A DNA stretch of 64,000 nt, taken from Thermoleophilia bacterium (GTDB lineage Bacteria; Actinomycetota; Thermoleophilia; RBG-16-64-13). The translations under genes were made by a program, and so were the position numbers. This document shows, one piece after another, positions 13,209 through 46,812 of this stretch (its first letter is position 1; every line of letters begins with the position of its first letter). Below the pieces are notes generated by a model. It worked only from the letters and a program-made list of their open reading frames with translations, ran no database searches and was not told where the DNA came from. The stretch is taken from NCBI GenBank assembly GCA_050943595.1, contig JBMNPM010000001.1, forward strand, positions 112,794 through 176,793, given 5' to 3'.

Positions 13209-13236
13209 CGCCTGCGGCTTCGTTTTCACCGGCCTT

Positions 13237-14976
13237 CTAGCGGTAGAAACGGATCTCGGTCAACTCCACTCCCCAGCGGCCGTTGCTGAGTTCGGCCATC
13301 TGTGTCAACCAGATACGGCCTGACGTGATGCCTTCCCGTAGGGTGAGGATCTGCGAAGTGTGCCCCGCGAGCACGGCCAGGCGGGCCGAGGCGTCGGAGG
13401 AGACATCCTGCAGCAGTTCTCCCTTCCACCCCTCGACGGTAGATGTGATCTCAATGACGGTGGCCTTCTCTGCGAGCGTGAACCGAAGTCCTACGCCCGT
13501 CTTGTCTATGCTGCCGAAGGTGCTGGATCGATAGGGTTCGGTCGTCCAGCCGGTAGACTCATCACCGTCGGTGAGGCGTGCGATGAGCTCTGGATTCTCT
13601 TGCTCGTCCCCCTCCGGGTCGTAGTCCTCCATCTTGGTCACTTTGACGGGCTGAGGCTTTCTGGCCACGGTGAGGCGGAGGATGTCGTCGGCGCCCTCGC
13701 CGGCGGGCGGATCCTGCTCGAGTACCAGACCTGTCGGTTGGTCGAAGGAGGGGACCTGATAGGCCATCTCTACTTTCATGTCCTTCTGCTCAGCCAGCTT
13801 CTGCGCCTCGTCAAAGTGTAGGCCTACGACGTCGGGGGCCTTGTCGTCACCCAGAGCGAGTAGGAGTACCACGACGATGATGACAATGAGGAGTGCTGTG
13901 GCGCCCACCATGCGCCAGCGTTGTATGGTTCGCTTCTTGCGCGCTAGGGCACGTGCCTGCATGCGGCTGGGGGCGGATCTCGCGGCGCCGTCTGCCCGTC
14001 GGGCCACGGATGTGGGTGGGACGCCCGCCGGGATGCGGCGGAAGCGAGTCGCTTCTTCGCCGGTTCGCCTGTGTAGGCGGCGGTGCTCTCGGGCTTCAGG
14101 TACTCTTTGAAGTGTGTATAGGCCGAGGCCCACAAGGGCGCCGAGGAGTTCGTCCATGGAGGAGAATCTGTCTTCGGGACGTTTCTCCAGGCAGCGCATT
14201 ACCACTTTCTCCAGGCCGGGCGGCAGGTCGGTTCGGGTTTTCCGAGCTTCCGACAACGGCACGGGTGGCGTGCTCAGATGTTGTCGCGCGATTTCGGGCA
14301 TGCTGTTGCCATCGAACGGAGGATGGCCGACCAACATCTCATACATGACGATGCCAAGGGAGTAGATGTCGGAACGGGCATCGACCGGTTTGCTGCGCAC
14401 CTGCTCGGGCGACATATACCGCGCACTGCCTATGATCGATCCGGCCCGTGTTACCCGGGTCCAATCTGTCCCGGTAGCGATGCCGAAGTCGGTCACCTTC
14501 GCGTGGTTGTGTCTGTCGATGAGGATGTTCTGCGGCTTGACGTCGCGGTGGATGATGCCGGCGAGATGAGCCACTGCCAGTCCTTCGGCCGCCTGGCCGG
14601 CTATGTGCCCGGCCTCCGCCGCAGGCAGAGGGCCGTTGCGGGTCGATTCCTTTAAGGAGCGCCCCTCAACGTATTCGAACACCAGGTAGTCTTCCTTATC
14701 GGTTGAACCGCGATCGATGAGGGTGACCAGGTTGGGGTGGGATAGTTGTGCCAGGGCTCGACCTTCGCGGTCGAAGCGGGCCCTGGTCCGGGCGTCTTCG
14801 TTGAGGGGCGGCTCGAGCCACTTGACGGCCACGTTTCGTTCCAGACGAGTATCCCAAGCCTGATAGACGACGCACATGCCTCCTCGTCCCAAGATCCGGC
14901 CCAGTCGATACCGGTTTTTGAGGAGGGGAGTGTTCTTGTTCTGGTCATCTTGTTTCTGATCGCGAGTGTCTGCCAT
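13237..14976 (-). CDS. Ser/Thr protein kinase with TM helix, PASTA domain and C-terminal discoidin/galactose-binding-like domain
   Basis: Hanks kinase motifs 'HRDVKPQNIL', 'DFGIA' and 'GSARYMSPEQ'. A TM helix 'ALLIVIIVVVLLLAL', then a PASTA-like segment and a ~170-aa C-terminal domain. Confidence 0.85.
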   Translation of the reverse strand: MADTRDQKQDDQNKNTPLLKNRYRLGRILGRGGMCVVYQAWDTRLERNVAVKWLEPPLNEDARTRARFDREGRALAQLSHPNLVTLIDRGSTDKEDYLVFEYVEGRSLKESTRNGPLPAAEAGHIAGQAAEGLAVAHLAGIIHRDVKPQNILIDRHNHAKVTDFGIATGTDWTRVTRAGSIIGSARYMSPEQVRSKPVDARSDIYSLGIVMYEMLVGHPPFDGNSMPEIARQHLSTPPVPLSEARKTRTDLPPGLEKVVMRCLEKRPEDRFSSMDELLGALVGLGLYTLQRVPEAREHRRLHRRTGEEATRFRRIPAGVPPTSVARRADGAARSAPSRMQARALARKKRTIQRWRMVGATALLIVIIVVVLLLALGDDKAPDVVGLHFDEAQKLAEQKDMKVEMAYQVPSFDQPTGLVLEQDPPAGEGADDILRLTVARKPQPVKVTKMEDYDPEGDEQENPELIARLTDGDESTGWTTEPYRSSTFGSIDKTGVGLRFTLAEKATVIEITSTVEGWKGELLQDVSSDASARLAVLAGHTSQILTLREGITSGRIWLTQMAELSNGRWGVELTEIRFYR

Positions 14977-15065
14977 GGGCCTGCCTAATGGGTCCTGATG
15001 ACGCTTTGCTATGGGTCGACCAAATACTATGATAGTACGTGTAGACGGTTTGGAGGTGATGACTC

Positions 15066-15266
15066 GTGATCTACTACGTGATCCCGCGCGAACTGGCGGA
15101 TAAGTACTACGAAGAATTCAAGAAGCGCTTCGAGGGTGTCGAAGGCGTGGAAGTCATAATCGACCGTCGTGAGCATGACCGTCGCGGAAACTCTCAAGGC
15201 GGAGGGCAGCGTGTGCTGCGGGACCGCCGGCGTCGTCGGGCCTACGGCTCGTTCTTGGACGTGTAA
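15066..15266 (+). CDS. small Arg-rich hypothetical protein (66 aa), first gene of the AmmeMemoRadiSam operon
   Basis: GTG start with a GGAGG RBS 10 nt upstream. Its stop lies 6 nt before the PHP gene. Sequence is 'MIYYVIPRELADKYYEEFKKRFEG...RDRRRRRAYGSFLDV'. Confidence 0.5.
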   Translation: MIYYVIPRELADKYYEEFKKRFEGVEGVEVIIDRREHDRRGNSQGGGQRVLRDRRRRRAYGSFLDV

Positions 15267-15271
15267 GTACG

Positions 15272-15964
15272 GTGCCTGCCGGATTCAAGCTGGATCTCCA
15301 TAATCACACGAACTATTCGTCGGATGGTGTGTTGCCGCCGGCCGCTCTGTTGAATATGGCCAAGCAGCGTGGTCTCGATTGCCTGGCGATCACCGACCAT
15401 GATTCGGTTCGTGGCGCTCTGGAGGCAGCTTCACTGGCTTTGGCCGATCCGACTCTTCCTCGAGTCATTCCCGGCGTGGAATTGACCACTCGGGTGGGAG
15501 AGATCATCGGTCTCTACGTGAGTGAGGATATTCCCAAGCGGCTACCGCTCAACGAGGCCGTGACCCGTATCCGGGAACAGGGCGGACTCGTTTATCTTCC
15601 GCACCCGTTTGATTATCTGCGCCGTGGGACCATTTCCCCTCGTGAGCGTCTCCGGGCTGCACAGTGGGCCGACATCATAGAAGTCGTCAACGGACGCTCA
15701 CTGGGGCCGGGGCCGGCCAAGAAGGCGGCTGCGCTGGCGGAGAAGCTTGGTAAGCCGGCAGGCGCCGGGAGCGATGCCCACTGGCCGTCGGAAGTTGGCA
15801 CGGTATACGTCGTGACCGCGGCTCTACCGACGGTGGAGACGCTGGTCGACTTACTTGCAGCGGGGCATGTGCAGGGGGGTATGCGATCGCGGCAGTACGT
15901 GCTCAATTGGGGGTTGAAGAGCTTGGCGCCGGTCACGCGTTTGCGTAGCCGCCTACCCTCATGA
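15272..15964 (+). CDS. PHP-domain phosphoesterase
   Basis: 'LDLHNHTNYSSDG' and 'ITDHD' PHP metal-binding motifs. 4-nt overlap with the radical SAM gene. Confidence 0.75.
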   Translation: MPAGFKLDLHNHTNYSSDGVLPPAALLNMAKQRGLDCLAITDHDSVRGALEAASLALADPTLPRVIPGVELTTRVGEIIGLYVSEDIPKRLPLNEAVTRIREQGGLVYLPHPFDYLRRGTISPRERLRAAQWADIIEVVNGRSLGPGPAKKAAALAEKLGKPAGAGSDAHWPSEVGTVYVVTAALPTVETLVDLLAAGHVQGGMRSRQYVLNWGLKSLAPVTRLRSRLPS

Positions 15965-17043
15965 TCGTGACTGAACCCATGCAGGCCGCCCTGTGGGAGG
16001 AGTGGTGTTCCTCAGGAAAGATCCACTGTTTTCTCTGCGCTCATCATTGCCGTATCGGGCCGGGTGAGCGGGGTCTCTGTGGAGTACGCGAGAACCGTGA
16101 GGGTGCACTGTACACCCTGGTATATGGATGTCCCATATCGACGGCTGCTGATCCCATCGAGAAGAAGCCGTTGTTTCACTTTCTGCCCGGCACGTCCAGC
16201 TACTCCATTGCCACGGTGGGGTGTAACTTCAGGTGTTCGTTCTGCCAGAACGCCGATATCAGCCAGATGCCTCGCGGCGGCGGCCGGGTAGCGGGTGGGG
16301 TGATGCCGCCTGAGCAGGTGGTCTCCGCCGCCCGCAGGGCCGGTTGCCGGAGTATCTCCTTCACTTACACCGAGCCCACCATCTTCTACGAGTACGCTCG
16401 GGATTGCGCCCGCCTGGCCACTTCCCAGGGTCTCAAGAATATCTTAGTCACCAACGGCTACATGACAAGACAGATGCTGGCCGATCTGGACGGGGACCTA
16501 CACGCGGCCAACGTCGATCTCAAGTCGTTCTCCGACGAGTTCTATCGTACGATGACAGGCGCCCGTCTCCAGCCCGTTCTGGATTCGATCCGCCGTCTGC
16601 ACGAGATGGGTGTCTGGTTAGAAGTCACGACGCTGCTCATCCCCGGCTATAACGACAGCGCGGATGAGCTGCGCGCATTGGCTCGTTTCTTGGTGTCGGT
16701 GTCCCCCGACATCCCCTGGCACGTCTCGCGCTTTTCTCCCTGCTACCGATTATTGGACGTGCCGCCTACTTCTCGCTCCTCGCTTGAGGAGGCGTGGCGC
16801 ATCGGCCATGACATGGGTCTACACTATGTATACCTCGGGAACATCCCCGGCTCTGGCTTCGAATCCACCGTATGTCCGGGGTGTGGGGAGGTCGTTATCG
16901 AGCGCCGGGGTTTTGCCATACGGGCCGACAGGCTGAAAGATGGCACATGCCCTCATTGTAGACGGTGTATCGCCGGCATGTCGGATGGCGAAGTTCTGAT
17001 CGCCCGGTCGTCTCAAGGGAGGAAGAAGTATGACCCTACTTAG
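15961..17043 (+). CDS. AmmeMemoRadiSam system radical SAM enzyme
   Basis: 'CNFRCSFCQN' CxxxCxxC motif, an N-terminal Cys cluster 'CFLCAHHCRIG...GLCGVR', and 'DPIEKKPLFHF'. Confidence 0.85.
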   Translation: MIVTEPMQAALWEEWCSSGKIHCFLCAHHCRIGPGERGLCGVRENREGALYTLVYGCPISTAADPIEKKPLFHFLPGTSSYSIATVGCNFRCSFCQNADISQMPRGGGRVAGGVMPPEQVVSAARRAGCRSISFTYTEPTIFYEYARDCARLATSQGLKNILVTNGYMTRQMLADLDGDLHAANVDLKSFSDEFYRTMTGARLQPVLDSIRRLHEMGVWLEVTTLLIPGYNDSADELRALARFLVSVSPDIPWHVSRFSPCYRLLDVPPTSRSSLEEAWRIGHDMGLHYVYLGNIPGSGFESTVCPGCGEVVIERRGFAIRADRLKDGTCPHCRRCIAGMSDGEVLIARSSQGRKKYDPT

Positions 17044-17884
17044 TTGCTATATCACCCCGCACCCGCCCATCGTGGTCCCCGAAGTAGGGGGAGAAGAAGT
17101 GGCGCAGGTGAATGCCACCTATCAGGCTCTACGTACGCTGGGCCGCAGAGTGGCTCTGCTTGAACCGGACACCATCGTAGTGTTGTCTCCCCACAGCCCT
17201 ATGGCGCGCTTTGGGATGGGTGTGTCATTGGCCTCGTCCTTTCGAGGTTCGCTGGTTCACTTCCGGGCACCCCAGGTACGTCTTGAGGTGGCGGCCGACG
17301 TGCAGGTAGCCCGGGCCATCAACGACGATGCGGTCGCTCGCGGCATACCCATGGCTGTGACGGCATCGCCTGGGACCACTATGGATCTGGATCACGGAGC
17401 CATGGTCCCTCTCTATTTCTTGACCGCTGATTTGACGCGCCCGTACAAGCTGGTGTTGTTGTCCTTCTCGCATCTGAGCCTTGAGGAACACGTTCGCTTC
17501 GGCCGGATCATAGGACGGGTGTTGATGGCGAGTTCGGCCGGGATCGTGTATGTGGCAAGTGGCGATCTGAGTCATCGCCTCTGCCAGGGGGCTCCGGCCG
17601 GCTTCGATCCCCGGGGGGCGGATTTTGACCGGGCGGTGACCACTTTCTTTGCGGCGGGAGACTGGGAAGCGCTGCTGAGTATTGAACCGGGGACGGTGGA
17701 CGCGGCCGGAGAATGCGGTTACCGTTCATTGGCTGTGCTCTCCGGCATCATCGAGACGGTCACCGGCGCCGGTGACCGCACAGAGAACCATCTTCTCTCC
17801 TATGAAGGACCTTTTGGGGTGGGCTATTTGGTGGGGGAGATCAACATCATGAACGCAGATCCGCAAACGGAGAGTGTCCCATGA
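17030..17884 (+). CDS. LigB/Memo-superfamily protein (AmmeMemoRadiSam system protein B position; class III extradiol dioxygenase-like)
   Basis: 'ITPHPPIVVPE' and 'ASGDLSHRL' motifs. 14-nt overlap with the radical SAM gene and 4-nt overlap with the AMMECR1 gene. Confidence 0.65.
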   Translation: MTLLSCYITPHPPIVVPEVGGEEVAQVNATYQALRTLGRRVALLEPDTIVVLSPHSPMARFGMGVSLASSFRGSLVHFRAPQVRLEVAADVQVARAINDDAVARGIPMAVTASPGTTMDLDHGAMVPLYFLTADLTRPYKLVLLSFSHLSLEEHVRFGRIIGRVLMASSAGIVYVASGDLSHRLCQGAPAGFDPRGADFDRAVTTFFAAGDWEALLSIEPGTVDAAGECGYRSLAVLSGIIETVTGAGDRTENHLLSYEGPFGVGYLVGEINIMNADPQTESVP

Positions 17885-18417
17885 GTGGAAACGTAGAGCG
17901 CCCTGCCGACTCCGTGGTGTCCCTGGCACGGCGGGCCGTCGAAGCCTACGTACGGGATGGGGAGGTCGTCGAGCCGGCTGAGATCCCCGAGCTGGAACCG
18001 CGGCGGGCGGGGGTTTTTGTGTCGCTACATCTGAGGGACGGATCGTTGCGGGGCTGTATCGGCACCCTACAGGCTACCTGTGACACCATTGAGAAGGAGA
18101 TCGTGAGCAACGCCGTCAGCGCCGCGACTCGTGATCCACGTTTCATGCCCCTGTCCCCGGACGAACTCGAGGGGCTTGATGTATCGGTGGATGTGCTCGG
18201 ATCGTCCGAGGAGGTGTCTGGCGTCGAGGATCTTGATCCCAAAAAATACGGTCTGATCGTGCGCACGGAAGACGGCCGGCAGGCTCTGCTCCTGCCCGAT
18301 CTGGAGGGCGTGGATACGGCTGAGCAGCAGCTACGGTTCACCTGCCGCAAGGGTGGGATCAACCCGAAGCGCGATCGTTACCGGCTCTTTCGCTTTCAGG
18401 TGGATCGCTATCACTAA
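17881..18417 (+). CDS. AMMECR1-domain protein (AmmeMemoRadiSam system protein A)
   Basis: 'LRGCIGT' AMMECR1 signature, 178 aa. Confidence 0.8.
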   Translation: MSGNVERPADSVVSLARRAVEAYVRDGEVVEPAEIPELEPRRAGVFVSLHLRDGSLRGCIGTLQATCDTIEKEIVSNAVSAATRDPRFMPLSPDELEGLDVSVDVLGSSEEVSGVEDLDPKKYGLIVRTEDGRQALLLPDLEGVDTAEQQLRFTCRKGGINPKRDRYRLFRFQVDRYH

Positions 18418-18541
18418 ACTGGGGGGCTTCGTTTTTCGGCGACCTCCCAGCGTCCCTGAGCCCAAACCCGTCCTTTGCATGGGTTCGGTCCTAGGTTATG
18501 ATAATTTTACACATAGTGAGCATCAGTGATAGGGAGTATCC

Positions 18542-18958
18542 GTGTCGATTTATGCACCCGGGGCTGTAGTCTTGAGCTCCAAGTTTCGTAAGCCCAGGCT
18601 CTTCCGATTCTCGCTCACGCGTCATCTGGTCTGGCGCGCCCTACTGAAGATTTTATACCGCGCCACCCATATCAAACACGGTAACCTTTGGGAGTACAAA
18701 CTCGGTTACAGCGTGCGTGACGTGGTGGGCGACAAGAGCCGGGCTGTGAAGGACCAGATGGAAGTATTTGCCCAAGCTGTACAAAAAGCGGGATCCTATA
18801 AGGCCAAAGATGAGGCTACGCGTGCTTTCCGCGCCGTTATGGAGGCTCTGAACGATCGCGTACCTCCCGACGTACTTATAAAACTGAGTGAGTCGCTCCC
18901 CGTGCGCGAGGCCGCCCGTCTGCGCCGCGCCGCCACTCAGAAACTGAACAAGAGCTGA
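18542..18958 (+). CDS. hypothetical protein, possibly DUF2267-like
   Basis: GTG start with an AGGGAG RBS and an AT-rich -10 region upstream. A helical repeat 'AFRAVMEALNDRVPPDVLIKLSESLP' resembles DUF2267. Confidence 0.4.
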   Translation: MSIYAPGAVVLSSKFRKPRLFRFSLTRHLVWRALLKILYRATHIKHGNLWEYKLGYSVRDVVGDKSRAVKDQMEVFAQAVQKAGSYKAKDEATRAFRAVMEALNDRVPPDVLIKLSESLPVREAARLRRAATQKLNKS

Positions 18959-19040
18959 GAGGCTGCTGGGACGGACGCCCAAGTATTAGCCGATGTGTGA
19001 GAGTCGACGGGCCGGCGTGGACCTCGTTACGATGGTGCGT

Positions 19041-20489
19041 TCAGCCTTTCACTACTCCTAAGGGCCGTAGGCGGGCTACTCGAGGCGAGATGCCTGCACG
19101 GTGCATCACACCGACGACCTGCTCTACGTCCTTGTACGCCTCCGGCATCTCTTCGCCCAGCGTCTTGGGGCCCTGGGAGCGAACTACTATGCCTGCAGCC
19201 GACAATTCGCGGTCAATGGCTCTGCCACGGGCGCGTTTAAGGGCTTGGCTCCGGCTCATCACTCGTCCCGCACCGTGACATGTGGAGCCGAAGGTCTGTG
19301 TCATGGCCTCCGCAGTGCCCTTACACACGAAGGAGGCGGTGCCCATATCCCCTGGGATGAGGACCGGCTGGCCGACTTCTCGATAGTCGTCCGGCACGTC
19401 GGTGTGGCCCGGGGCAAAGGCTCGGGTAGCTCCTTTTCTGTGCACACAGGCTCTGATGGTTGTACCGTTCAGGTCATGGGTTTCGAGCTTAGCGATGTTG
19501 TGGGCTACGTCGTATACCAGCCGTAGACCCAACTCGCGGGGAGAGATGCGCAGGGCGTGAAGGATGGCTTTCTCCACCAGGTGCATGATTATCTGGCGGT
19601 TGGTCCAGGCATAGTTGGCCGCACAGGCCATCGCAGCCAGGTAGCGGCGGCCTTCCGGTGAGGCCACGGGGGCGCAAACCAATTGACGATCGGGAAGCTC
19701 GATCTTGTAGCGGCGGCTCGCCTCAGCCATGACCTTCAGGTAGTCCTCGCAGATCTGATACCCGAGACCTCGTGAGCCGCAGTGGATCATGATGGTCAAT
19801 TGCCCTTCGTGGAGGCCGTAGGCTGCGGCCGCCCGGCGGTCAAAGACGGTCTCGACCACCTGCAGTTCGAGGAAATGGTTGCCCGAACCCAAAGTGCCCA
19901 ACTGATCGGCCCCGCGTGTGTAGGCACGTTCGCTCACCATCGCCGGATCGGCTCCGGCCAGAGCGCCGTGGTCCTCGGTGTGCTCCAGGTCGGCTGCTGC
20001 ACCGTAACCCTGTTCCACCGCCCAGCCTGCACCTTGTATCAGCACTCGCTCCAGTTCGCTGCGGGCCAGGCGGGCGATCGCTCCCTTGGAGCCCACTCCC
20101 GAGGGCACGTCTCGGAACATCTGCTCAATCAGACGGGGCTCCTTTCCTGTGATGCTCTCGGTGGTGAGGTCGGTGGCCAAGAGCCGGCAGCCACAGTTGA
20201 TGTCGTAGCCGACTCCGCCGGGTGATATCACACCGTCATCCACGCTGAACGCCGCCACCCCCCCGATGGGGAAGCCGTAGCCGAAGTGGATGTCGGGCAT
20301 GGCCAGCGAGTAGCGGACGATCCCGGGTAGCTGGGCCACGTTGCTCACCTGGGTCAGGCTTGAGTCGTCCCGCAGCGCCTGCATGAGCTCGTCGTCGGCG
20401 TAGATACGCCCCGGCACGCGCATGACCTCCGTCGGAGGCAGTTCCCAGACTACTTCATCAATGCGCCGTGGTGCTCTCATCCCACTCAT
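19041..20489 (-). CDS. rtcB: RNA-splicing ligase RtcB
   Basis: 482 aa with the RtcB motifs 'HCGSRGLG' and 'HNIA', and catalytic His 'HGAGR'. Confidence 0.9.
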   Translation of the reverse strand: MSGMRAPRRIDEVVWELPPTEVMRVPGRIYADDELMQALRDDSSLTQVSNVAQLPGIVRYSLAMPDIHFGYGFPIGGVAAFSVDDGVISPGGVGYDINCGCRLLATDLTTESITGKEPRLIEQMFRDVPSGVGSKGAIARLARSELERVLIQGAGWAVEQGYGAAADLEHTEDHGALAGADPAMVSERAYTRGADQLGTLGSGNHFLELQVVETVFDRRAAAAYGLHEGQLTIMIHCGSRGLGYQICEDYLKVMAEASRRYKIELPDRQLVCAPVASPEGRRYLAAMACAANYAWTNRQIIMHLVEKAILHALRISPRELGLRLVYDVAHNIAKLETHDLNGTTIRACVHRKGATRAFAPGHTDVPDDYREVGQPVLIPGDMGTASFVCKGTAEAMTQTFGSTCHGAGRVMSRSQALKRARGRAIDRELSAAGIVVRSQGPKTLGEEMPEAYKDVEQVVGVMHRAGISPRVARLRPLGVVKG

Positions 20490-20524
20490 CTTCTACTCAT
20501 CTCCTACTTAGCTCATCGTCCACG

Positions 20525-20977
20525 TCACACGTCGAGTAGTACCGTCGCCACCCATCCCTGGTCCGGTGTATGGGCGGCCGTCAATTGGTGATAGGTGACC
20601 GCTTTGACCTCGGCAAACAAGGGGTGCCGTAGTGGATCGACGGTCTCTCCCCACAGATGGGCCTCGGCCAGGAGATGAGGAGTCTCGGCTCGTGGCGTCA
20701 TTGGGCCTGTCTGCACGTCGACGCGCGCACCGGCGGCGACGAAACCATCGACCTCGAACCGAAACAACGCTTCGGCCAGTAGGGCGCGCAACGTGGTCTC
20801 CACCGAGGGGCCGGTGACCTTCAAGACCAGTTCGTTATCGGGCTGAACGGTCTTTACATCAGTTATCTGCCGGTACAGGGCATAGAGGGCGTTCTCGAGA
20901 AGCTCGTTGACCACCCGGCCGTGGATCTCCAGAAAGAGATCGGCCGGGTGGTCGAGGTCGGTATAGGCGCAGCTCAT
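20525..20977 (-). CDS. archease (RtcB activator)
   Basis: 'YTDLDHPADLFLEIHG' matches the archease N-terminus. The start is probably the second Met. The ORF track begins at 21001. Confidence 0.7.
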   Translation of the reverse strand: MSCAYTDLDHPADLFLEIHGRVVNELLENALYALYRQITDVKTVQPDNELVLKVTGPSVETTLRALLAEALFRFEVDGFVAAGARVDVQTGPMTPRAETPHLLAEAHLWGETVDPLRHPLFAEVKAVTYHQLTAAHTPDQGWVATVLLDV

Positions 20978-21005
20978 GTCCCTGTCTATCCAGAGAAGCA
21001 TGTCT

Positions 21006-23522
21006 TCAGCTCTCCGCGTCCTCTGAGGCTGCTTCGGCCCGACCGGCTCCCTTCTTGGCTTTGGTCGCGCGGCGCTTCTTTGCGCTTTCCAAGACCTGCT
21101 CGAGCACAGTGCTCACGTGGTCCGTATATACGAACGTCAGTCCCGCCAGTAGGTCCTCTTCTCGTATGTCGGCCACATCGGCCTCGTTGCGGTCGGGGAG
21201 GAAGACCTTGGTGATCCCGGCGGCGCGGGCGGCCAGCACTTTCTCCTTGATGCCGCCTACGGGGAGCACCTGGCCGGTGAGGGTCACCTCGCCGGTCATG
21301 GCCACATCTGGGTCGACAGGACGTCCGGAGACCATGCTGGCTATGGCGACGGTCATGGCTACGCCTGCCGAAGGACCGTCTTTGGGCACTGCGCCCGCGG
21401 GGACGTGCACGTGGATGTCGTTTTTCTGGAAGAATTCATCGTCGCCCCCCAGGTCGTCCGACATGCTGCGTACCACGGTCAGGGCGGCCTGTGCCGACTC
21501 TTTCATCACATCGCCGAGTTGGCCGGTGAGGATCAGACGGCCGGTGCCCGGCATGGCCCGCGCTTCGATGAACAGTATGTCGCCTCCCGTGGGAGTCCAG
21601 GCCAGGCCCGTGGAGACGCCGGGATCGCGGGTGCGACGCTTGGTTTCACGGAAGACCTTCCTCTTACCCAGGAAATCCGGCACCTGCTCAGAGTCGACGG
21701 TCAGGTTATCTTTGGTCTCTTCGGCCACCATACGGGCGAACTTACGGGCGATGGTACCTATCTCGCGCTCTAGGCTGCGCACTCCGGCTTCGCGCGTATA
21801 ACTCTCGATGACCGCCTCTAGGGCCTCATCGGTGAACTCCAGTTGGCCCTCCTTCAGCCCGTTGCGGTCCAGCTGCCTGGGTACCAAGTATCGTTTGGCA
21901 ATGTGTAGCTTGTCTTTCTGCGTGTATCCGGCGATGGAGATGATCTCCATACGGTCACGCAGGGGGCCGGGGATGGTGTCGAGCATATTGGCGGTGCAGA
22001 TGAACATGACCCGGGAAAGATCAAAGGGCAGGTCGAGATAGTGATCGCGGAAGGTGTTGTGTTGCTCGGGGTCGAGCACTTCCAACATGGCACTGGAGGG
22101 ATCTCCCCGCCAGTCGGATCCCATCTTGTCGATCTCGTCGATCATAAAAACTGGATTGTTGCTGCCGGCATCACGAAGGGCCCGGATTATGGTGCCCGGC
22201 ATGGCGCCTACATACGTGCGCCTGTGTCCGCGGATCTCCGACTCGTCGCGTACGCCCCCCACGCTGATGCGGATAAACTTCCTCCCCATTGCTCTGGCGA
22301 TGCTCTTGCCGAGACTGGTTTTGCCCACCCCCGGGGGTCCCGCGAAGCAGAGGATCGGTCCCGATACCTCGCTTTTGAGTTTCTGCACGGCAAGGAACTC
22401 AAGGATGCGGTCCTTGACATCTTCGAGGTCGTAGTGGTCTTCGTCGAGAACGGTGCGGGCGTGCCCGATGTCGAGGTTATCCTCGGTGGTCACCGACCAG
22501 GGCAGTGAGAGTATCCAGTCCAGGTAGGTGCGGATGACCCCATACTCGGCTGCGGCCGGCGGCAGTTTCGAGAGCCGGTCCAGCTCGCGCCGAGCCTGCT
22601 TGTCGACTTCTTCAGGCAGCTGCGCCTCGTCCAGTCGGTCTCGTAGCTCATTGGTCTCAGCTTGGGTCTCGTCGGTCTCACCCAGCTCCTCCTGGATGGC
22701 CTTCAGCTGCTGGCGAAGGAAGTACTCGCGTTGGTTCTTGTCCATCTCCGACTGGACCTGGCTCTGGATCTTCGAGCCGAGTTCCAGGACCTCGAGTTCA
22801 CGGTTCATGAGGCCGGTGAGGCGGCGGAGGCGCTTGGAGACCTCCACCTCTTCCAACAATTCCTGCTTCTCCTCCGCCTTGAGACGCATGGTCGAGGCGA
22901 TGAAGTAGCCGAGTGCGGATGGGTCCTCGATGTTGGCCGCCGCCATCTCGAGCTCATCAGGGAGATTGGGCACCAACTGGATGATCTTGGTGTATACCGA
23001 TAGCAGGTTGCGTTGCAGGGCTTGGAGTTCCGGGCCTTCTTCCAGCACATCGGGTAGATCGGTGACCTTCGCCATCAAATAAGGCTCTTCAGCGATGAAC
23101 TCATCGATGGTGAAGCGACGTACACCTTGGGCGACGATGCGCAACGAGCCGTCCGGTGCCTTGAGCATCTTCTGGATGTTGGCCAGCACGCCTACGTGGT
23201 AGACGTCTCCGGGCATGGGGATCTCGATATCCGCCGATTTGGCCGCCACGAGGCCGACCTGTCTGTCGCCACGCAGTATGTCATCGATGAGGTGCACAGA
23301 TCGCGGCTGGGCTACAGCCAGGGGCAACAGGGTATCCGGGAAGATGACCGTGTCTTTGAGGGGCATTATGGGCAACCCCTGGGAGTGTAGCCGTTCGGTC
23401 GCGTCTGCGGGTTCCTGGGAGACGAGGATGAAGTCCTGATCGGCGGCGCCCGGGTCGTTTCTCTCCTCGCTTTCTGGGCTCATGAGGGCGCCGAAATCGA
23501 TTTCGTGAGCCGCCATAGTCAC
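21006..23522 (-). CDS. lon: ATP-dependent Lon protease
   Basis: LON N-domain, AAA+ 'GPPGVGKTS', and the proteolytic 'PKDGPSAG' Ser-Lys dyad. Confidence 0.92.
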   Translation of the reverse strand: MTMAAHEIDFGALMSPESEERNDPGAADQDFILVSQEPADATERLHSQGLPIMPLKDTVIFPDTLLPLAVAQPRSVHLIDDILRGDRQVGLVAAKSADIEIPMPGDVYHVGVLANIQKMLKAPDGSLRIVAQGVRRFTIDEFIAEEPYLMAKVTDLPDVLEEGPELQALQRNLLSVYTKIIQLVPNLPDELEMAAANIEDPSALGYFIASTMRLKAEEKQELLEEVEVSKRLRRLTGLMNRELEVLELGSKIQSQVQSEMDKNQREYFLRQQLKAIQEELGETDETQAETNELRDRLDEAQLPEEVDKQARRELDRLSKLPPAAAEYGVIRTYLDWILSLPWSVTTEDNLDIGHARTVLDEDHYDLEDVKDRILEFLAVQKLKSEVSGPILCFAGPPGVGKTSLGKSIARAMGRKFIRISVGGVRDESEIRGHRRTYVGAMPGTIIRALRDAGSNNPVFMIDEIDKMGSDWRGDPSSAMLEVLDPEQHNTFRDHYLDLPFDLSRVMFICTANMLDTIPGPLRDRMEIISIAGYTQKDKLHIAKRYLVPRQLDRNGLKEGQLEFTDEALEAVIESYTREAGVRSLEREIGTIARKFARMVAEETKDNLTVDSEQVPDFLGKRKVFRETKRRTRDPGVSTGLAWTPTGGDILFIEARAMPGTGRLILTGQLGDVMKESAQAALTVVRSMSDDLGGDDEFFQKNDIHVHVPAGAVPKDGPSAGVAMTVAIASMVSGRPVDPDVAMTGEVTLTGQVLPVGGIKEKVLAARAAGITKVFLPDRNEADVADIREEDLLAGLTFVYTDHVSTVLEQVLESAKKRRATKAKKGAGRAEAASEDAES

Positions 23523-24019
23523 TTGTCTCCTTTGTCGGCCGATTGTCCGGCTTCACCGGCGGACGGGCGTTCTTCGGTGGCATCTATGCTGATGCGCCTA
23601 CGGCCCGATCGCTGTTTGAGGGGCAGCAGGATCTCGAGGAAGCCGTTGGTGTAGTCGGCCGAAGCGTTGGCGGTGTCAACCTCGGGTGGCAGGGGTACCC
23701 GGCGCTCAAAACGCCCATAGCTGATCTCCATCTGCTGGTAGACGGCGTCCGGATGTTTACTATCCACCCGGTTGCCACCCACCCGTAGGACTCCATCGTC
23801 GACCTCTAGATCGATCGTAGCCGGGTCGATGCCGGCGAGTTCCAGCTTGATTACCAGGATGCGTTGGCGGCGGTCGAAGTACACATCGGCGTTGGGTCTG
23901 AGGTAGGTGCCGCCGTAGCGGCACGTCCGTTCGCCACGTAATAACTCGAGGAAGATCCTATCGACGTCGTTTTGCGCGCGCCGGAATCCGGGCGGATCAT
24001 CTTTATGTCTTGGTTCCAC
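23519..24019 (-). CDS. Hsp20/alpha-crystallin family small heat-shock protein
   Basis: ACD motifs 'FERRVPLP...GFLEILLPLK'. GTG start. 4-nt overlap with lon. Confidence 0.8.
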   Translation of the reverse strand: MEPRHKDDPPGFRRAQNDVDRIFLELLRGERTCRYGGTYLRPNADVYFDRRQRILVIKLELAGIDPATIDLEVDDGVLRVGGNRVDSKHPDAVYQQMEISYGRFERRVPLPPEVDTANASADYTNGFLEILLPLKQRSGRRRISIDATEERPSAGEAGQSADKGDK

Positions 24020-24068
24020 TATGACCTCGTGTGGGAGTGTTTACCATAGGGATCGGTTGCTCGATTAC

Positions 24069-24090
24069 CAGTACTGTTTAGTAGTACTGT
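24069..24090 (-). promoter_or_regulatory. candidate operator upstream of hsp20-lon: direct repeat CAGTACT-N7-CAGTACT (AGTACT is itself palindromic)
   Basis: Located ~50-70 nt upstream of the hsp20 GTG, just upstream of a TATGGT -10-like hexamer on the coding strand. Confidence 0.4.
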
Positions 24091-24225
24091 CTAGTGTAGT
24101 GTCCCATAGTCGCCCCGCCAAACCACCCGACCGGCCTGCCTGCCCTGACCGACCGGGTGCACGCACTTGCGCGTAATCCAGGCCGGTCCACGGTGGTTTC
24201 GTCCACGTTCCGGCGTTCGCGGGCA

Positions 24226-27108: not shown

Positions 27109-27115
27109 GGCGCGT

Positions 27116-27772
27116 TCATAGTGAGGGGGAGAGGACTATAACGCTCCGTTCCTTAGGCAGTGTACCGTTGGTCACCTCGATAGTAGATGATGTCTTGCGC
27201 TCCACTCGTCCTTGGCCTGCCAGGAACGGGTCGACTCCGGCGATGGGAAAATCGATACGGTTGGTCTTGTAGTGCATGGGTACGACGATGCGGGGTTCAA
27301 GAGCCTTCACGACTTCGGTGGCCTCGTCGTGGTCGATGGTGAAGTGGCCTCCTACCGGTATGAGGAGGATGTCCACCCTGCCTAACTGCTCGACGATGTC
27401 TGGAGTGAGGAGATGACCGAGGTCGCCGAGATGGACGAGGCGGACGTCACCGTCGTCGAGGATGACTATGGTGTTGGAGCCTCGTTCGCTCCCATGACTC
27501 CCGTCGTGAAATACGTCGACGCCTTTAATGCGCAGATCACCGATGGTCTCTGTCTTGGGCTGCACGAGTACCAGCGGCTTCCCCGGTATGGCATCGATAC
27601 CGGCGTGGTCGGGGTGAGTGTGGCTGGCTATTGCCACATCGGCCGCATCGGTTATGGCTCCGTAGCGGACGGCGCCGTCGTAGCATCCTGGGACGTAGGG
27701 GTCGAGGATCACTCGCGTCCCGTCACGAGTCTCGACGAGGAAAGACGAGTGGCCGTAGTAGGTAAGTCTCAT
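27116..27772 (-). CDS. MBL-fold metallo-hydrolase
   Basis: 'HTHPDH' metal-binding motif. Confidence 0.75.
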   Translation of the reverse strand: MRLTYYGHSSFLVETRDGTRVILDPYVPGCYDGAVRYGAITDAADVAIASHTHPDHAGIDAIPGKPLVLVQPKTETIGDLRIKGVDVFHDGSHGSERGSNTIVILDDGDVRLVHLGDLGHLLTPDIVEQLGRVDILLIPVGGHFTIDHDEATEVVKALEPRIVVPMHYKTNRIDFPIAGVDPFLAGQGRVERKTSSTIEVTNGTLPKERSVIVLSPSL

Positions 27773-28084
27773 AATAATATCGCCTCCTCTGACTGTTTTC
27801 CCGTGCAGTGTGGGTTAGCCGATAGCCGTAAAAGGTAACAATAGCAAATAGGCGGTCTGGCCCTCTTCCAGAGGCAGTCATCGATCTGGGGCCGGTCCGG
27901 CAGAGAACGTGCGGTGTGCTAAAATACCCCATCAGGTATACTGTGGGAGGCGCCGAACCGGTCGCACAGTAACGATGGTATACGTTGTGGCAGTACGTAG
28001 TAGTTAGAATAAATAGTGAGGCACCACGATGACACGTTGGTGGCCGGGTCAGCCTATACAACAACCTATGCAAGGAGGACGATA

Positions 28085-28408
28085 ATGAGCGAGGCAGTGC
28101 AGGACTTAGATACCCAGGGGTTCGAACAGATCGTCTCCACATCCACTATTCCTGTGATTGCCGATTTTTGGGCACCCTGGTGCGGTCCCTGCCGCATGGT
28201 GGGCCCCGTGCTGGAGAAGTTGGCCGCCGACCATGCGGGCAAGGTCGCCGTCGTCAAGGTCAACGTGGACAATAATCAGGACTTGGCGGCGCGCTTCGGG
28301 ATCAGGAGTATCCCCACGGTCTTGATGTTTGAGGGCGGTGAGAAGAAAACCGAAGTGGTCGGTGCCCGGAACCAGAAGGATTACGAAGCCGCGTTCGGGT
28401 TGGCCTAG
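28085..28408 (+). CDS. trxA: thioredoxin
   Basis: 'WAPWCGPC' active site. AAGGAGG RBS 6 nt upstream of the ATG at 28085. Confidence 0.9.
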   Translation: MSEAVQDLDTQGFEQIVSTSTIPVIADFWAPWCGPCRMVGPVLEKLAADHAGKVAVVKVNVDNNQDLAARFGIRSIPTVLMFEGGEKKTEVVGARNQKDYEAAFGLA

Positions 28409-28650
28409 GAGGAGAAGGCTGCTGAAAAACGAAACCCCGGCCGCCGGAGCGCACTAAACAACACGATAGTACGTCATCGGTCGCGCGAATAGCGCTGCTA
28501 TTCGCGCTCCCTCTATCCTTCTCTCGCGCGTGCTGATTGCGCTCCTGCGGCGAAGTGTCATAGTTCAGCAGCCTTCTGGGCATCGTTGTGATTGATGTGT
28601 AGGTGTGGGGCGCGTGAGATAATTCTTCGGCAGCCTTGCAAAGGAGCAGA

Positions 28651-38011: not shown

Positions 38012-38036
38012 CCGGTCGAGAACCTGGGAGGACGAA

Positions 38037-39356: not shown

Positions 39357-39397
39357 CCCGTCCGGCCGACGAGCAGACGGGCAAGAAGGGAGACATA

Positions 39398-42998: not shown

Positions 42999-43046
42999 AT
43001 CGCAGTCTTAGGCCGGATCCATCTCACTTTCTGATACGCTGGGGCA

Positions 43047-43289
43047 ATGAAAAGCTCTATTAGTGTCCTTTTGTTCTTTTTGCTCAGCGGCTTTTTTCTG
43101 AGCGCCCTTCTGAGCGCCCTTGAGCGAAGTCGCAAGATGCTGGGCATCGCGGGTCTCTGTCTGGCGGCTGTGGTCTGTGTGGTGGTGTTTCTGACGCCGG
43201 TCAGTCTCCCGTCGTGGAACTTTGGTCGCGACTCGGATACTACTGAATCCACCCTCACAACGGAGGCTTCCCGTGTCCAACCTCGGTAA
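43047..43289 (+). CDS. possible small membrane protein (2 TM, 80 aa), doubtful
   Basis: ORF in the 270-bp purF-purM gap with two hydrophobic segments. It contains a 13-bp tandem duplication (LSALLSAL). Antisense ORFs also exist here. Confidence 0.25.
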   Translation: MKSSISVLLFFLLSGFFLSALLSALERSRKMLGIAGLCLAAVVCVVVFLTPVSLPSWNFGRDSDTTESTLTTEASRVQPR

Positions 43290-45077: not shown

Positions 45078-45118
45078 GCGGGTCTAAGCGAAAATCGCCC
45101 GTCAATGAGGAGGCGAGA

Positions 45119-46660
45119 GTGAAGGTAGAGCGCGCGTTGGTCTCGGTGTCGGACAAGCGGGACCTGGAGCTGTTCGTCAGTGGCTTGGTGGAGTTGGGGA
45201 TCGAGGTCATCTCCACGGGTGGTACGGCCCGCGCTCTGCGCGACACCGGTCTGCCCATCACGAGTATCTCCGATGTCACGGGTTTCCCCGAGATCATGGA
45301 CGGACGGGTGAAGACCCTGCATCCGGCCATCCACGGCGGTATCCTGGCAGACCGTGGTCGCGCCACCCATATGAAGGCCATCGCCGACCTGGGCATTGAG
45401 CCCATCGATCTGGTTGTGGTCAACCTGTATCCCTTTGAAGAGGTGACTTCGCAGCGCGGTGTCAAGGAGTCTGAGGCGGTCGAGAATATCGATATCGGCG
45501 GCCCCTGTATGGTGCGCTCTGCGGCGAAGAATTTCGTGGGGGTTGGTATTGTCGTTGATCCTGATGACTACGAAGCCGTGTTGGCGGAACTTCGAGCTAA
45601 TCGGGGCGAACTTCTGCTCGAGACCCGACGCAGGTTGGCCGTCAAGGCTTTTCACCATACAGCTCACTACGATTCGGTTATCGCCAACTGGTTCAGCTCG
45701 CAGGAGAGTGACTTTCCCGATAATCTGGCGGTGAACCTCGTGAAACTCAAGGACCTGCGCTACGGGGAGAACCCGCATCAGCGCGCGGCTTGGTATGCGG
45801 AGAGCGACGCGTCCGGACAGGCCGAAGCGCTTCTAGAGCAACTACACGGTGGTGCGCTGTCCTTCAACAACCTACTGGATCTCGAAGCCGCCCGCCGTAC
45901 ACTCGATGAGTTCAGCTTGCCTGCTGCCGTCATTATCAAGCACAACAATCCCTGCGGTGTGGCTCTGGCTGAGACTGTGGCGGCTGCCTACGACAAGGCC
46001 TTCTCGTGTGATCCCGTGTCGGCCTACGGAAGCGTTATTGCGGTTAACCGAGTGGTTGATGAGGACATTGCCCGTCTACTCGCCAAGAATTTTGTGGAGG
46101 TGCTTTGGGCGCCCTCCTATACGAATGAGGCGTTCGAGATCCTTACAGTGAAGGAGAATATCCGCATCCTCACGGGCCAGCAGAGGCGGGAGGTCTGCGG
46201 TGGAAGTTTCGATATGAAGCGCATTCATCGCGGTATGTTGGTCCAGGATTGGGATTGTGAGGTCGATGAACGCGAGAACATGGAGGTCGTCAGCAGGCGC
46301 CATCCCACCGAGGCCGAATGGGGCGATCTCCTTTTTGCCTGGAGGGTGGCTAAACACACTAAGTCGAACGCCATCATTCTGGCCAAGGATCTCATGACCA
46401 TCGGCGTGGGGGCCGGCCAGATGAGCCGGGTCGACTCTTCCAATCTGGCGGTGACCAGGGCCCGTTTCCCGTTGACCGGTTGTGCGGTGGCTTCGGATGC
46501 CTTTTTCCCCTTCCCTGATGCGCTACAGGTGGCGGCCGACGCGGGTGCCACCAGCGTGATCCACCCTGGAGGTTCAAAGCGAGACAGCGAGTCGCTTGCC
46601 TTGGCCAACGAGCGAGACATGGCCATGGTGGTCACTGGGCGGAGGCACTTTAGGCACTAG
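45119..46660 (+). CDS. purH: bifunctional AICAR transformylase/IMP cyclohydrolase
   Basis: MGS-like N-terminus 'ALVSVSDKRDL' and AICARFT domain. 513 aa. Confidence 0.92.
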   Translation: MKVERALVSVSDKRDLELFVSGLVELGIEVISTGGTARALRDTGLPITSISDVTGFPEIMDGRVKTLHPAIHGGILADRGRATHMKAIADLGIEPIDLVVVNLYPFEEVTSQRGVKESEAVENIDIGGPCMVRSAAKNFVGVGIVVDPDDYEAVLAELRANRGELLLETRRRLAVKAFHHTAHYDSVIANWFSSQESDFPDNLAVNLVKLKDLRYGENPHQRAAWYAESDASGQAEALLEQLHGGALSFNNLLDLEAARRTLDEFSLPAAVIIKHNNPCGVALAETVAAAYDKAFSCDPVSAYGSVIAVNRVVDEDIARLLAKNFVEVLWAPSYTNEAFEILTVKENIRILTGQQRREVCGGSFDMKRIHRGMLVQDWDCEVDERENMEVVSRRHPTEAEWGDLLFAWRVAKHTKSNAIILAKDLMTIGVGAGQMSRVDSSNLAVTRARFPLTGCAVASDAFFPFPDALQVAADAGATSVIHPGGSKRDSESLALANERDMAMVVTGRRHFRH

Positions 46661-46812
46661 CAGGCTTCGTTTTTCAGCAGCCTCCTAAGAGCGGGCGCAG
46701 TCGCGGATCTGTAGTGGTGCCTCTGCAGGTGATGTGCACCGGCCGGCCGAACTGTATAGGTGACCGACCGTATGGTGGATGAGGTTTTAGATTTGATTCT
46801 TACCTGTATGAT

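Follow-up and report, generated by a model that had tools for sequence, protein, structure and literature searches.

The motif of about 23 nt that recurs behind the stop codons of unrelated genes in the 64 000-nt stretch of DNA analysed here (the window) is most probably the terminal inverted repeat at the right end of a non-autonomous MITE of about 162 nt, specific to uncultured Actinomycetota of the Thermoleophilia/Gaiellales type. This family of hairpin-forming MITEs of about 162 bp is undescribed. It belongs with the ordinary selfish repeats of the ERIC, Correia and RUP kind and is not a new terminator signal.

The word GGYTTCGTTTT occurs exactly four times in the window, each time at one of the four motif sites, against 0.05 occurrences expected from shuffled sequences; the 23-mer consensus, with up to three mismatches, has three matches against none expected. 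The recurrence beyond chance described in the first-pass annotation is thus borne out, and its coordinates for all four copies proved correct when the window was re-checked, as did their placement behind the stop codons of the ABC-ATPase (TGA, 13206–13208), AMMECR1 (TAA, 18415–18417), trxA (TAG, 28406–28408) and purH (TAG, 46658–46660) genes. A chance match or the relic of a coding sequence is next to impossible. The same 21-mer can encode the ABC-ATPase motif GFVFQQP, and 16 pattern matches in unrelated phyla are indeed intragenic, several of them coding for GFVFQQP; however, all four window copies are intergenic, the Actinomycetota matches have at least 45 nt of further upstream sequence in common, and this shared sequence, the profile matches and the shuffle counts together refute such an origin. 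Readings made by eye, of the motif as a sigma-54 or sigma-70 promoter and of its reverse complement (GGAGG...) as a small ORF with SD, were dropped once the motif was recognized as the end of a longer repeat.

The window contains one full copy of this repeat and three internally deleted minis of about 26 nt (c1–c3), in which both termini are kept:

13209–13240, plus strand: mini c1, the most decayed copy, GCGGCT joined to TCGTTTT-CACCGGCCTTC (exact 11-mer; nhmmer E=0.26)
18419–18450, plus strand: mini c2, a decayed 25-nt element, GGGGCT joined to TCGTTTTTCGGCGACCTCC (nhmmer E=0.023; exact 11-mer)
28414–28575, minus strand: full-length element of 162 nt, the sole complete copy in the window (nhmmer E=5.8e-37; covariance model R1, 149.8 bits)
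28434–28450, minus strand: local terminator-like stem within the full element (right arm), with the motif TTCGTTTTTC behind it as T-tail (promoter/terminator scan)
46660–46685, plus strand: mini c3, internally deleted, 26 nt, G-CAGGCT joined to TCGTTTTTCAGCAGCCTC-C (nhmmer E=9e-7; empty site in L153)

The consensus of the element reads YTAR, then S-AGGCTGCTGArAAAyGACGC...core...GGyTTCGTTTTTCAGCAGCCT-S, then YTAR, and the whole unit folds as one rod-like hairpin. In the terminal inverted repeats AGGCTGCTGArAAAyGA pairs with TCGTTTTTCAGCAGCCT; helix 1 comprises 39 pairs, with 96% of the cells paired. The termini of the 162-nt unit are inverted, and YTAR is present on both flanks in 42 full copies. 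The full window copy takes up most of the trxA–lgt spacer and forms a single long hairpin (−99.7 kcal/mol, against −78.8 kcal/mol for the complement); the covariance model favours the minus strand over the plus strand, with 149.8 against 48.9 bits. Its flanks are degenerate forms of YTAR, with CCAG on the left (28576–28579, minus-strand reading) and CTAG on the right, the latter containing the trxA stop; five extra nucleotides (28409–28413) separate this stop from the element. The inverted copy noted earlier behind trxA is therefore correctly positioned, but it does not stand alone, being the terminal 23 nt of a complete element. No Rfam family was found over the element, either at the gathering threshold in the window or at E<=1 in four loci, and a covariance-model search for further diverged copies in the window returned generic short hairpins only.

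The minis would be derivatives produced by internal deletion, the first 6 nt or so of the left end (SAGGCT) having been fused, across a GGCT microhomology, with the final 19 nt or so of the right end. The deletion junction is the same in all three; alternatively, the 26-nt form could itself be mobile. Mini c3 is flanked by duplicated TA (46658–46659 and 46686–46687), the purH stop TAG consisting of the target TA and the first base of the element, and its terminal 8-bp stem folds. Mini c2 begins 2 nt past the AMMECR1 stop and has the degenerate flanks CTGG and CCAG; its ends pair (−17.8 kcal/mol as RNA). Mini c1 sits between the convergent ABC-ATPase and PASTA Ser/Thr kinase genes, and its right flank, CTAG, contains the kinase stop (13237–13239, minus strand). 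It is degenerate, with a 1-nt deletion and a poor profile match, and is accepted as a copy because it carries the exact 11-mer and because a segment of about 26 nt is missing at the orthologous site in the related genome L077.

The motif forms the 3' end of the longer repeat in 56 of 72 genome matches, and all 56 are in Actinomycetota MAGs (25 in FR_37, 14 in bin.430 and 7 in a Gaiellales MAG). With the profile, 105 non-overlapping matches were found in the loci examined, 45 of them in 192 kb of FR_37, where the copies are dispersed across a 4.6-Mb contig. Some Thermoleophilia/Gaiellales-type MAGs carry roughly hundreds of copies, and related genomes range from none to hundreds. Other phyla, plasmids, phages and Rfam lack the element. 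Internally deleted derivatives are also present among the family copies, and one subfamily-2 element is nested within the CTAG of a family-1 copy. Many MAG contigs from short-read assemblies end inside the element. The earlier proposal of a small dispersed, REP-like repeat is in essence correct, except that the unit is a MITE-like palindrome of about 162 nt and the motif only its terminal inverted repeat.

The relative L153, in which purH is 86% identical, has an empty purH site, CACTAAGAGCGGG, i.e. CAC-TA-AGAGCGG; the window has CACTA[26 nt]TAAGAGCGGG, i.e. CAC-TA-[26 nt]-TA-AGAGCGG. This comparison indicates insertion into the TA of the stop codon, with duplication of the TA and regeneration of the stop. 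The c3 insertion, which is identical in a second sample (L156), provides the single exact empty site found, and a duplication of TA fits it without any mutation. Several other empty sites are approximate. In L077 and L073 the orthologous spacer lacks mini c2; in L077 the ABC-ATPase and kinase genes overlap at their stop codons, the missing segment of about 26 nt falling exactly at the c1 position; and a full copy that sits on a stop codon in L026 has no counterpart in the orthologous spacer of L037. The homology between L071 and L006 ends exactly at the junction of CTAG and the element. There are no clean empty sites in the pairs L061/L066, L071/L006 and L007/L021, where either synteny is lost at the junction or the element occupies both sites, and no simple empty site for the full window copy in L077, which has a different insert (an FmdB-type Zn-ribbon ORF). 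Insertion would take place at TA within a YTAR context and duplicate at least the TA. The R of YTAR matches between the flanks in 23 of 42 copies against 16.6 expected (p=0.03), a weakly informative excess that hints at a longer duplication including R.

In the definition of bacterial MITEs by Delihas 2008 (PMC2229807), these are short (<200 bp), transposase-free, multicopy dispersed units with terminal inverted repeats, terminal 5'-TA-3' and a target-site duplication; they are A+T-rich, and the same or a related genome carries an autonomous IS whose TIRs match theirs. The element described here is such a dispersed unit, of 162 nt, with terminal inverted repeats, and the filled and empty c3 sites and the YTAR flanks give it the terminal TA and the duplication. 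It departs from the definition in composition, the window copy having 58% G+C and the consensus being G+C-rich; exceptions to A+T-richness (YPAL/RU-2) are named in the same review. Elements of the Tc1/mariner/IS630 group insert only at TA, with duplication of the TA (PMC2170065). The match of the observed features with the published definitions of bacterial MITEs and of these TA-duplicating elements supports the MITE reading (PMC2229807; PMC3184786; PMC2170065).

Among at least 80 copies, about 36 element ends have a gene stop within 20 nt and about 6 are near a start, an approximately sixfold excess at 3' ends. The orientation of the element relative to the adjacent genes is unbiased (19 co-directional, 17 anti-directional). 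A flanking TAA or TAG closes an ORF of at least 100 codons at 28 of 115 ends, compared with a background of 13.8% (p=0.002). The enrichment after stops anticipated in the first-pass annotation therefore exists, though on both sides and in both orientations, which argues for target choice and purifying selection and not for a 3'-end signal. In genomes of 60–70% G+C, the tolerated TA sites would mostly be the TAA and TAG stop codons at gene ends. With a purine beside the duplicated TA on either strand, the stop codon would be regenerated and the insertion would be nearly neutral. TA targeting and stop regeneration would explain why genes with no relation to each other have element ends 0–8 nt from their stops, irrespective of side and orientation.

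A role in RNA was weighed against this explanation. In the full element a long G+C-rich hairpin stands between an A-tract and a U-tract (UUCGUUUUUC), the scan calls a terminator-like site in the window full copy on its own strand, copies lie at gene 3' ends and between convergent genes, and the structure is under selection; there are also published precedents, since Correia, ERIC and bcr1 RNAs affect mRNA fate (PMC2229807, PMC3184786). It is nevertheless very improbable that the repeat is primarily an RNA element selected by the host, be it a (bidirectional) terminator, a 3'-UTR stabilizer or a processing hairpin, with a post-stop position that reflects this function. The orientation to the upstream gene is random, and stop-abutting genes read more often into the weaker-pairing strand (20 against 8). 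The window full copy, with its terminator-like stem, is antisense to both flanking genes, trxA and lgt. Relatives lack the element at the same junctions, the copy number differs between related genomes to the extent given above, and the organism has ordinary terminators. As the first-pass annotation had stated, the short copies show no canonical hairpin followed by a U-tract (z-scores of −1.8 to +1.5 for the fold, none flagged by the terminator scan), and structure prediction with 40 nt of context, proposed there as a check, gave no significant fold for any of them. An intrinsic (Rho-independent) terminator was rejected on this ground, and also because the full copy is flagged solely on its own, antisense strand and the orientation is random. 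None of the short copies is a terminator. The lineage-specific terminator or 3'-processing signal considered at first, and likewise an RNA-binding-protein site, lose their support: the short copies have no stable structure, the orientation is random across about 80 copies, the same gene junctions in related genomes have no copies, and TA insertion at TAA/TAG explains the post-stop position. Judging from its layout, the full element, as distinct from the minis, could on transcription also serve as a terminator or RNA hairpin.

The hairpin shows features that are not expected of a plain MITE. Canonical pairing is 96.5% on the motif strand and 84.2% on the complement; recurrent G.U is seen at 22 pairs and A.C at 4 (p=5e-4), and 28 of 52 pairs have compensatory changes, values reached by none of 500 shuffles. 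The motif strand is the more stable in all 38 copies with RNA parameters and in 36 of 38 with DNA parameters. Between the subfamilies, which have a conserved core in common, the terminal 20 nt or so are replaced yet still complementary. The internal loops, too, are conserved; they are non-palindromic and contain RGGACGC direct repeats. A model of dsDNA cut-and-paste predicts neither strand-specific pairing, nor swapped complementary termini, nor conserved non-palindromic loops, and these features therefore count against it. Conceivably the rod hairpin is itself the functional unit, spreading via or acting as a strand-specific single strand, with ends set by pairing only and the RGGACGC core as a protein-recognition module; we regard this as unlikely. 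Quite unlikely, too, is a mobile element other than a classical dsDNA cut-and-paste MITE, with a strand-specific ssDNA or RNA intermediate and an enzyme that would recognize the rod hairpin rather than the terminal sequence, by analogy with REPINs and RAYT, the ends of IS200/IS605 and integron attC sites. In that case the TA on the flanks would reflect the target together with mimicry by the ends, with no true duplication. For HUH enzymes (REP/REPIN with RAYT), a single-strand structure specific to one strand is expected. The covariation, the greater stability and covariance score of the motif strand and the swapped but complementary termini all favour such an intermediate, as do the decayed end-only remnants, which resemble REP singlets, and the failure to find a DDE transposase in the approximately 1.3 Mb of sequence searched. 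Against it, the sole exact empty site is most simply a TA duplication, and the inverted repeats extend to the extreme ends, as in DDE elements. Unlike in IS200/IS605, orientations are mixed within single 8-kb loci and are unrelated to GC skew or replichore; there is no RAYT/Y1 gene between or beside copies; and the attC core sites RYYYAAC/GTTRRRY are missing, the copies being dispersed and not arrayed.

A MITE of the preferred kind would be mobilized in trans, by cut-and-paste, through a DDE transposase that targets TA, either one of the IS630/Tc1-mariner type or, should the duplication comprise all of YTAR, an IS5-like one. The cognate DDE/D enzyme of an IS630/Tc1/mariner-mobilized element would have HTH domains and bind the double-stranded IRs. 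The link to IS630/mariner consists solely of the TA duplication and of the end, TA followed by R-CAGG, which shows a mere resemblance to the Himar1 ITR ACAGGTTGGCTGA. Multi-copy ORF clustering, stray TIR pairs and genes bracketed by inverted copies revealed no transposase with matching ends in the same 1.3 Mb or so; the bracketed genes (thiolase, PIN, HTH, nucleotidyltransferase, cytochromes) include no RAYT. No autonomous parent was found in the window, in viral contigs (scan) or in plasmids or phages (BLAST), and there was no orientation bias with replichore, the assignment of which was rough, or with GC skew, of the sort expected for HUH/ssDNA elements. The rejected candidates are an IS200/IS605-type ssDNA element (mixed orientations within 8-kb loci, no GC-skew link), a REP/REPIN–RAYT system (no RAYT near copies, TA duplication present) and an integron attC site (ends CAGGCTG and CAGCCTG with YTAR flanks, copies dispersed over the FR_37 contig); attC, hammerhead and retron readings were all rejected on missing core motifs and the dispersed multi-copy distribution. 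An IS200/IS605-type element would be oriented with replication and would insert 3' of a fixed target without duplicating it, a REP/REPIN–RAYT system would have a RAYT (Y1 HUH transposase) gene between the repeats and likewise no target duplication, and attC sites would come in cassette arrays with intI nearby.

Several known repeats are comparable. ERIC is an imperfect palindrome of about 127 bp with TIRs, a target duplication and 5'-TA-3' at both termini, located between or 3' of genes in either orientation, co-transcribed and forming an RNA hairpin (PMC3184786). The present element resembles it in being an imperfect palindrome (of about 162 bp), in its TIRs and TA termini and in its position and orientation. 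There is, however, no sequence similarity, the phylum is another one, and ERIC is A+T-rich; strand-specific covariation and swapped-terminus subfamilies were shown for the present element and not found documented for ERIC in the texts consulted. The Correia/NEMIS elements of Neisseria are MITEs of about 100–155 bp with long TIRs, TA duplication, hundreds of copies and shorter internally deleted forms, in which the paired 5' and 3' ends form an RNA stem-loop processed by RNase III (PMC2229807). Size, TIRs, duplication, copy number and internal deletion are all similar here, but the element has no evident IHF site or promoter motifs, its lineage and sequence differ, and its mini form, at 26 nt, is very much shorter. 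RUP of Streptococcus pneumoniae is likewise a TA-inserting MITE, the transposase of which was inferred from TIR similarity to an IS630-family element, IS630-Spn1 (PMC2229807); for the element described here no parent IS was identified. The bcr1 repeat of the Bacillus cereus group is non-autonomous, about 155 bp long, flanked by direct repeats and transcribed, with compensatory changes that maintain the RNA structure (PMC3184786). It shares similar length, flanking direct repeats and compensatory changes with our element, but has 5-bp direct repeats and a two-stem-loop cruciform instead of a single rod hairpin with TA/YTAR flanks. REP/REPIN sequences are also extragenic, often between convergent genes, hairpin-forming and hundreds in number, with decayed singlets as remnants; the present element differs in its TA duplication, in having no RAYT near its copies, in not consisting of two short REP palindromes and in having no conserved GTAG/CTAC.

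In these little-studied, uncultured Actinomycetota, annotating a conserved-looking motif behind stop codons as a terminator or regulatory site should therefore be avoided. The presence or absence of the element marks lineages, and the family breaks short-read assemblies; given complete genomes, the profile and covariance model built here would permit a genome-wide census. The family illustrates clearly how an element that targets TA ends up, in a G+C-rich genome, on stop codons, which it regenerates. Strand-specific covariation and swappable termini are the only features that could yield something mechanistically new. If the rod hairpin is indeed the functional unit, it would represent a new class of hairpin-recognized mobile elements in Actinomycetota, with an enzyme as yet unknown, or, alternatively, a mobile cassette that delivers a structured RNA or terminator to gene ends.

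The window is bacterial DNA of 60% G+C that includes genes for Lgt and a PASTA kinase. It lies in none of the fetched genomes; its purH has an identical counterpart in a JGI metagenome protein and is 80–86% identical to purH of other uncultured Actinomycetota. The first-pass annotation had reported four copies of a motif of about 23 nt placed just 3′ of stop codons; all four are present at the coordinates it gave, beside the ABC ATPase, AMMECR1, PurH and thioredoxin genes that it named. The 11-nt core of the motif, GGYTTCGTTTT, occurs four times in the 64 kb, always at a copy site (dinucleotide shuffles expect 0.05), and the 23-nt consensus with up to three mismatches matches three copies (none expected). 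Copy 1 has a 1-nt deletion. Taken with about 40 nt of context, none of the copies is more stably folded than shuffled sequence, and all four lie outside any Rfam family. A profile of the longer repeat described below finds one complete copy in the window, on the minus strand, and three matches restricted to the final 30 or so profile positions, here called minis. The supposed inverted copy is thus merely the end of the complete copy and not a stand-alone motif. The covariance model of the repeat scores the full copy at 149.8 bits and detects no further full copy in the window.

Copies of the element and other features of the window
9469–9571, plus strand: TPP riboswitch (Rfam RF00059, 70.8 bits), ahead of a gene that begins at 9593
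13209–13240: mini c1 (profile E=0.26)
18419–18450: mini c2 (profile E=0.02)
28413–28579, minus strand: complete copy c4 (profile E=6e-37)
46660–46685: mini c3 (profile E=9e-7)
46813–49200 and 49346–51757, plus strand: two tandem paralogous 7TM-PAS-GGDEF-EAL genes, directly downstream of purH and c3
51886–51997: tRNA-Lys(UUU), then a textbook bidirectional intrinsic terminator, of the canonical hairpin-plus-T form (AAAAAAGCCCCGCAGAAGCGGGGCTTTTTT)

Searched for exact occurrences of GGYTTCGTTTTTCRGCRRCCT, 185,579 species-representative genomes yield 72 loci, 56 of them from uncultured Actinomycetota: 25 in FR_37 (a 4.6-Mb Thermoleophilia MAG), 14 in 'Actinomycetes bin.430', seven in a Gaiellales MAG and the remainder in related MAGs. 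The other 16 are single matches within genes of unrelated phyla, several encoding the ABC-ATPase motif GFVFQQP. In every actinomycetotal match a longer conserved block ends, on its 3′ side, with the motif. Alignment gives a unit of about 162 nt, YTAR|S-AGGCTGCTGArAAAyGACGC...GGyTTCGTTTTTCAGCAGCCT-S|YTAR, whose left and right ends are mutual inverted repeats. With the profile of this unit, 105 copies or fragments that do not overlap are detected across the fetched loci; many of the 8-kb loci have two to four, and the 45 matches within 192 kb of FR_37 imply copies on the order of hundreds per genome. MAG contigs L008, L032, L040, L047, L067, L068 and L069 start or stop inside the element, which indicates that the repeat breaks short-read assemblies of the carrier lineages. 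In FR_37, a relative of the 7TM-PAS-GGDEF-EAL genes (L030:5330–7135) has a partial element fragment on either side (5186–5240 and 7719–7772). A mini-form sequence, CAGGCTTCGTTTTTCAGCAGCCTGCTAG, in a low-complexity intergenic stretch of the Acidobacteria MAG 13_1_40CM_65_14 (L031:1350–1379) may have arisen by chance, belong to a mis-binned contig or reflect horizontal spread. No account of repeats of this sort from Thermoleophilia, Gaiellales or Solirubrobacterales was found in the searchable literature.

The clearest evidence of mobility comes from the end of purH. In the comparator locus L153, whose purH is 86% identical, this end reads ...CGCCAC TAA GAGCGGGG. The window has ...AGGCAC TA[G CAGGCTTCGTTTTTCAGCAGCCTCC] TAA GAGCGGGC at this place, as does a second sample (L156) without any difference. 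Relative to L153, 26 nt have been inserted within the TA of the stop codon and the TA has been duplicated; the first inserted base restores the stop as TAG. A 20.7-kb metagenome contig (L077), collinear with window 9471–29381 at about 72% identity, carries no element copy anywhere. At its c1 site the two convergent genes have overlapping stop codons, and the contig lacks about 26 nt exactly at the position of the mini; at the c2 site the copy is absent from both L077 and L073. At the c4 site (window 28409–28635), L077 read in reverse complement has, in the spacer that separates its trxA and lgt orthologues, not the element but an ORF of 75 aa for an FmdB-type zinc-ribbon protein (MATYDLRCRSCGRDFEVFV...CPDCGS), a gene absent from the window.

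Elsewhere, a full copy in L026 lies right on the stop codon of a thiolase gene (AGC-TA-A|element|C-TA-G), and the orthologous spacer of L037 is without a copy; homology between L071 and L006 stops exactly at CTAG|element; a second subfamily is nested in CTAG inside family-1 copies; and several copies in the MAG loci have internal deletions. In 42 full copies YTAR is found on both flanks. The R position agrees between left and right in 23 (16.6 expected, p=0.03), and agreement at the Y position is not above chance. This indicates a duplication of at least TA, possibly longer.

One orthologous intergenic site is occupied in two genomes (L007:2733–2904 and L021:1507–1667). The flanking genes are only about 70% identical, the right halves of the copies about 93%, and the L021 copy is 5′-truncated by an upstream ORF; conservation, gene conversion and re-insertion fit this shared occupancy alike. 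Three nesting levels of mobile elements are found in L016 (1–1394), where a group II intron (RT/maturase ORFs 2–370 and 537–1250; Rfam RF00029 domain V/VI at 1199–1268) adjoins with its 3′ end a subfamily-2 half (1269–1328), in turn nested in a family-1 half (1325–1394). This intron may target the element hairpin.

Each mini consists of SRGGCT fused to TCGTTTT(T)C...CCTyC: about 6 nt that open the left end and about 19 nt that close the right end meet at GGCT, a string found in both arms of the full element. The extreme ends of c3 and c2 still pair. Since both termini are retained in this end-joined layout, we read the minis as internal-deletion derivatives. They may have arisen by recurrent microhomology or hairpin slippage, or by transposition of the 26-nt form itself. 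No mini is present among the 25 seed matches of FR_37.

The association with stop codons extends beyond the window. Gene calls from a crude GC3-based method place about 36 element ends no more than 20 nt from a gene stop and about six equally close to a start; in about 22 cases the YTAR flank contains the stop codon. Independently of gene calls, at 28 of 115 ends a TAA or TAG in the flank terminates an ORF of 100 codons or more (24% against a background of 13.8%, p=0.002). Both ends and both orientations are concerned: 19 elements are co-directional with genes and 17 anti-directional, 15 lie between convergent genes and six between divergent ones. In the window, the stops of purH (c3), trxA (c4) and the PASTA kinase gene (c1) are within the flanks. 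Target choice would be the simplest reading. For an element targeting TA or YTAR in a genome of 60–70% G+C, the tolerated targets would mostly be the stop codons TAA and TAG, and, with a purine next to the duplicated TA whichever strand is read, the stop codon would survive insertion. CTAG is rare in the window (51 occurrences), which fits a scarcity of YTAR targets outside stop codons. The word GATC is strongly overrepresented there (385 occurrences, roughly 230 being expected by our own estimate from base composition alone).

The complete unit folds as a single rod-like hairpin (consensus energy −118.8 kcal/mol). RNAalifold, run on an alignment of 38 diverse copies (those of four sub-lineages together with the window copy and subfamily 2), predicts 52 pairs, of which 28 show compensatory changes. 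Paired cells amount to 96.5%, against 88.1 ± 0.4% in shuffles (none of 500 as high) and 34–44% with slid partners. The terminal 20 nt or so differ wholly between subfamilies with complementarity kept (GAGCTCGTTTCGCAATGA with TCGTTGTGAAACGAGCTC, or CTGTTGA with TCAACAG), and a core of about 125 nt is conserved across them, including unpaired purine-rich loops with direct RGGACGC repeats. Pairing is also strand-specific. Canonical pairing falls from 96.5% on the motif-bearing strand to 84.2% on its complement, G.U recurs in 22 pairs and A.C in four (p=5e-4), the motif strand is the more stable in all 38 copies with RNA parameters and in 36 with DNA parameters, and the covariance model scores it 100 bits above the complement for the window copy. 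Short G+C-rich hairpins at 60673–60720, 53433–53469 and 54637–54674 of the window are generic stems to this model (E 0.01–0.2); that at 60673–60720, between convergent genes, may be a terminator.

The first-pass annotation had proposed a terminator, a 3′-processing signal, an RNA-binding-protein site or a small dispersed repeat, and only the last of these stands. The organism uses canonical terminators, as the one after tRNA-Lys indicates. A scan with the terminator consensus flags no mini; it flags the full copy on its own strand (local stem 28450–28434, then TTCGTTTTTC). Within a complete element the motif supplies the U-rich 3′ half of a layout of A-tract, hairpin and U-tract. A terminator or RNA-hairpin side effect of full copies is therefore plausible, and the effects reported for Correia, ERIC and bcr1 are consistent with it (PMC2229807, PMC3184786). 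We reject terminator function as the cause of the recurrence in the window because the full copy is antisense to both neighbours and three of the four copies are without a hairpin.

The element matches bacterial MITEs, as defined in PMC2229807 and PMC3184786, in size and in having TIRs, a TA at the termini with duplication of the target, dispersed copies, sites that are filled in one genome and empty in another, and an RNA stem-loop formed by pairing of the ends; unlike them it is not A+T-rich, and no parent IS was found for it. Insertion at TA only, with TA duplication, is defining for Tc1/mariner/IS630 (PMC2170065), and the ends TA|R-CAGG resemble the Himar1 ITR ACAGGTTGGCTGA, a likeness that may serve as a lead and not as a test. 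No transposase with matching ends was found in the fetched loci, the window, viral contigs, plasmids or phages. REPIN/RAYT, IS200/IS605, attC and intrinsic-terminator membership were each rejected on at least one tested defining feature.

The element is thus a new family of a well-known kind. Any TIR element should show co-varying inverted ends; recognition of the double strand does not predict the G.U bias or a conserved core that is asymmetric. These features are the basis of a less likely reading, in which the element would spread through a strand-specific single-stranded intermediate (ssDNA or RNA) recognized as a hairpin. Element orientation shows no replichore or GC-skew bias, and abutting genes read into the weaker strand more often (20 against eight), which leaves both a lagging-strand ssDNA mechanism and a role in host mRNA unsupported. 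Strand-specific pairing is the unexplained residue of the MITE account, and these strand-specific, structure-defined ends around a conserved core are the feature that merits specialist attention.
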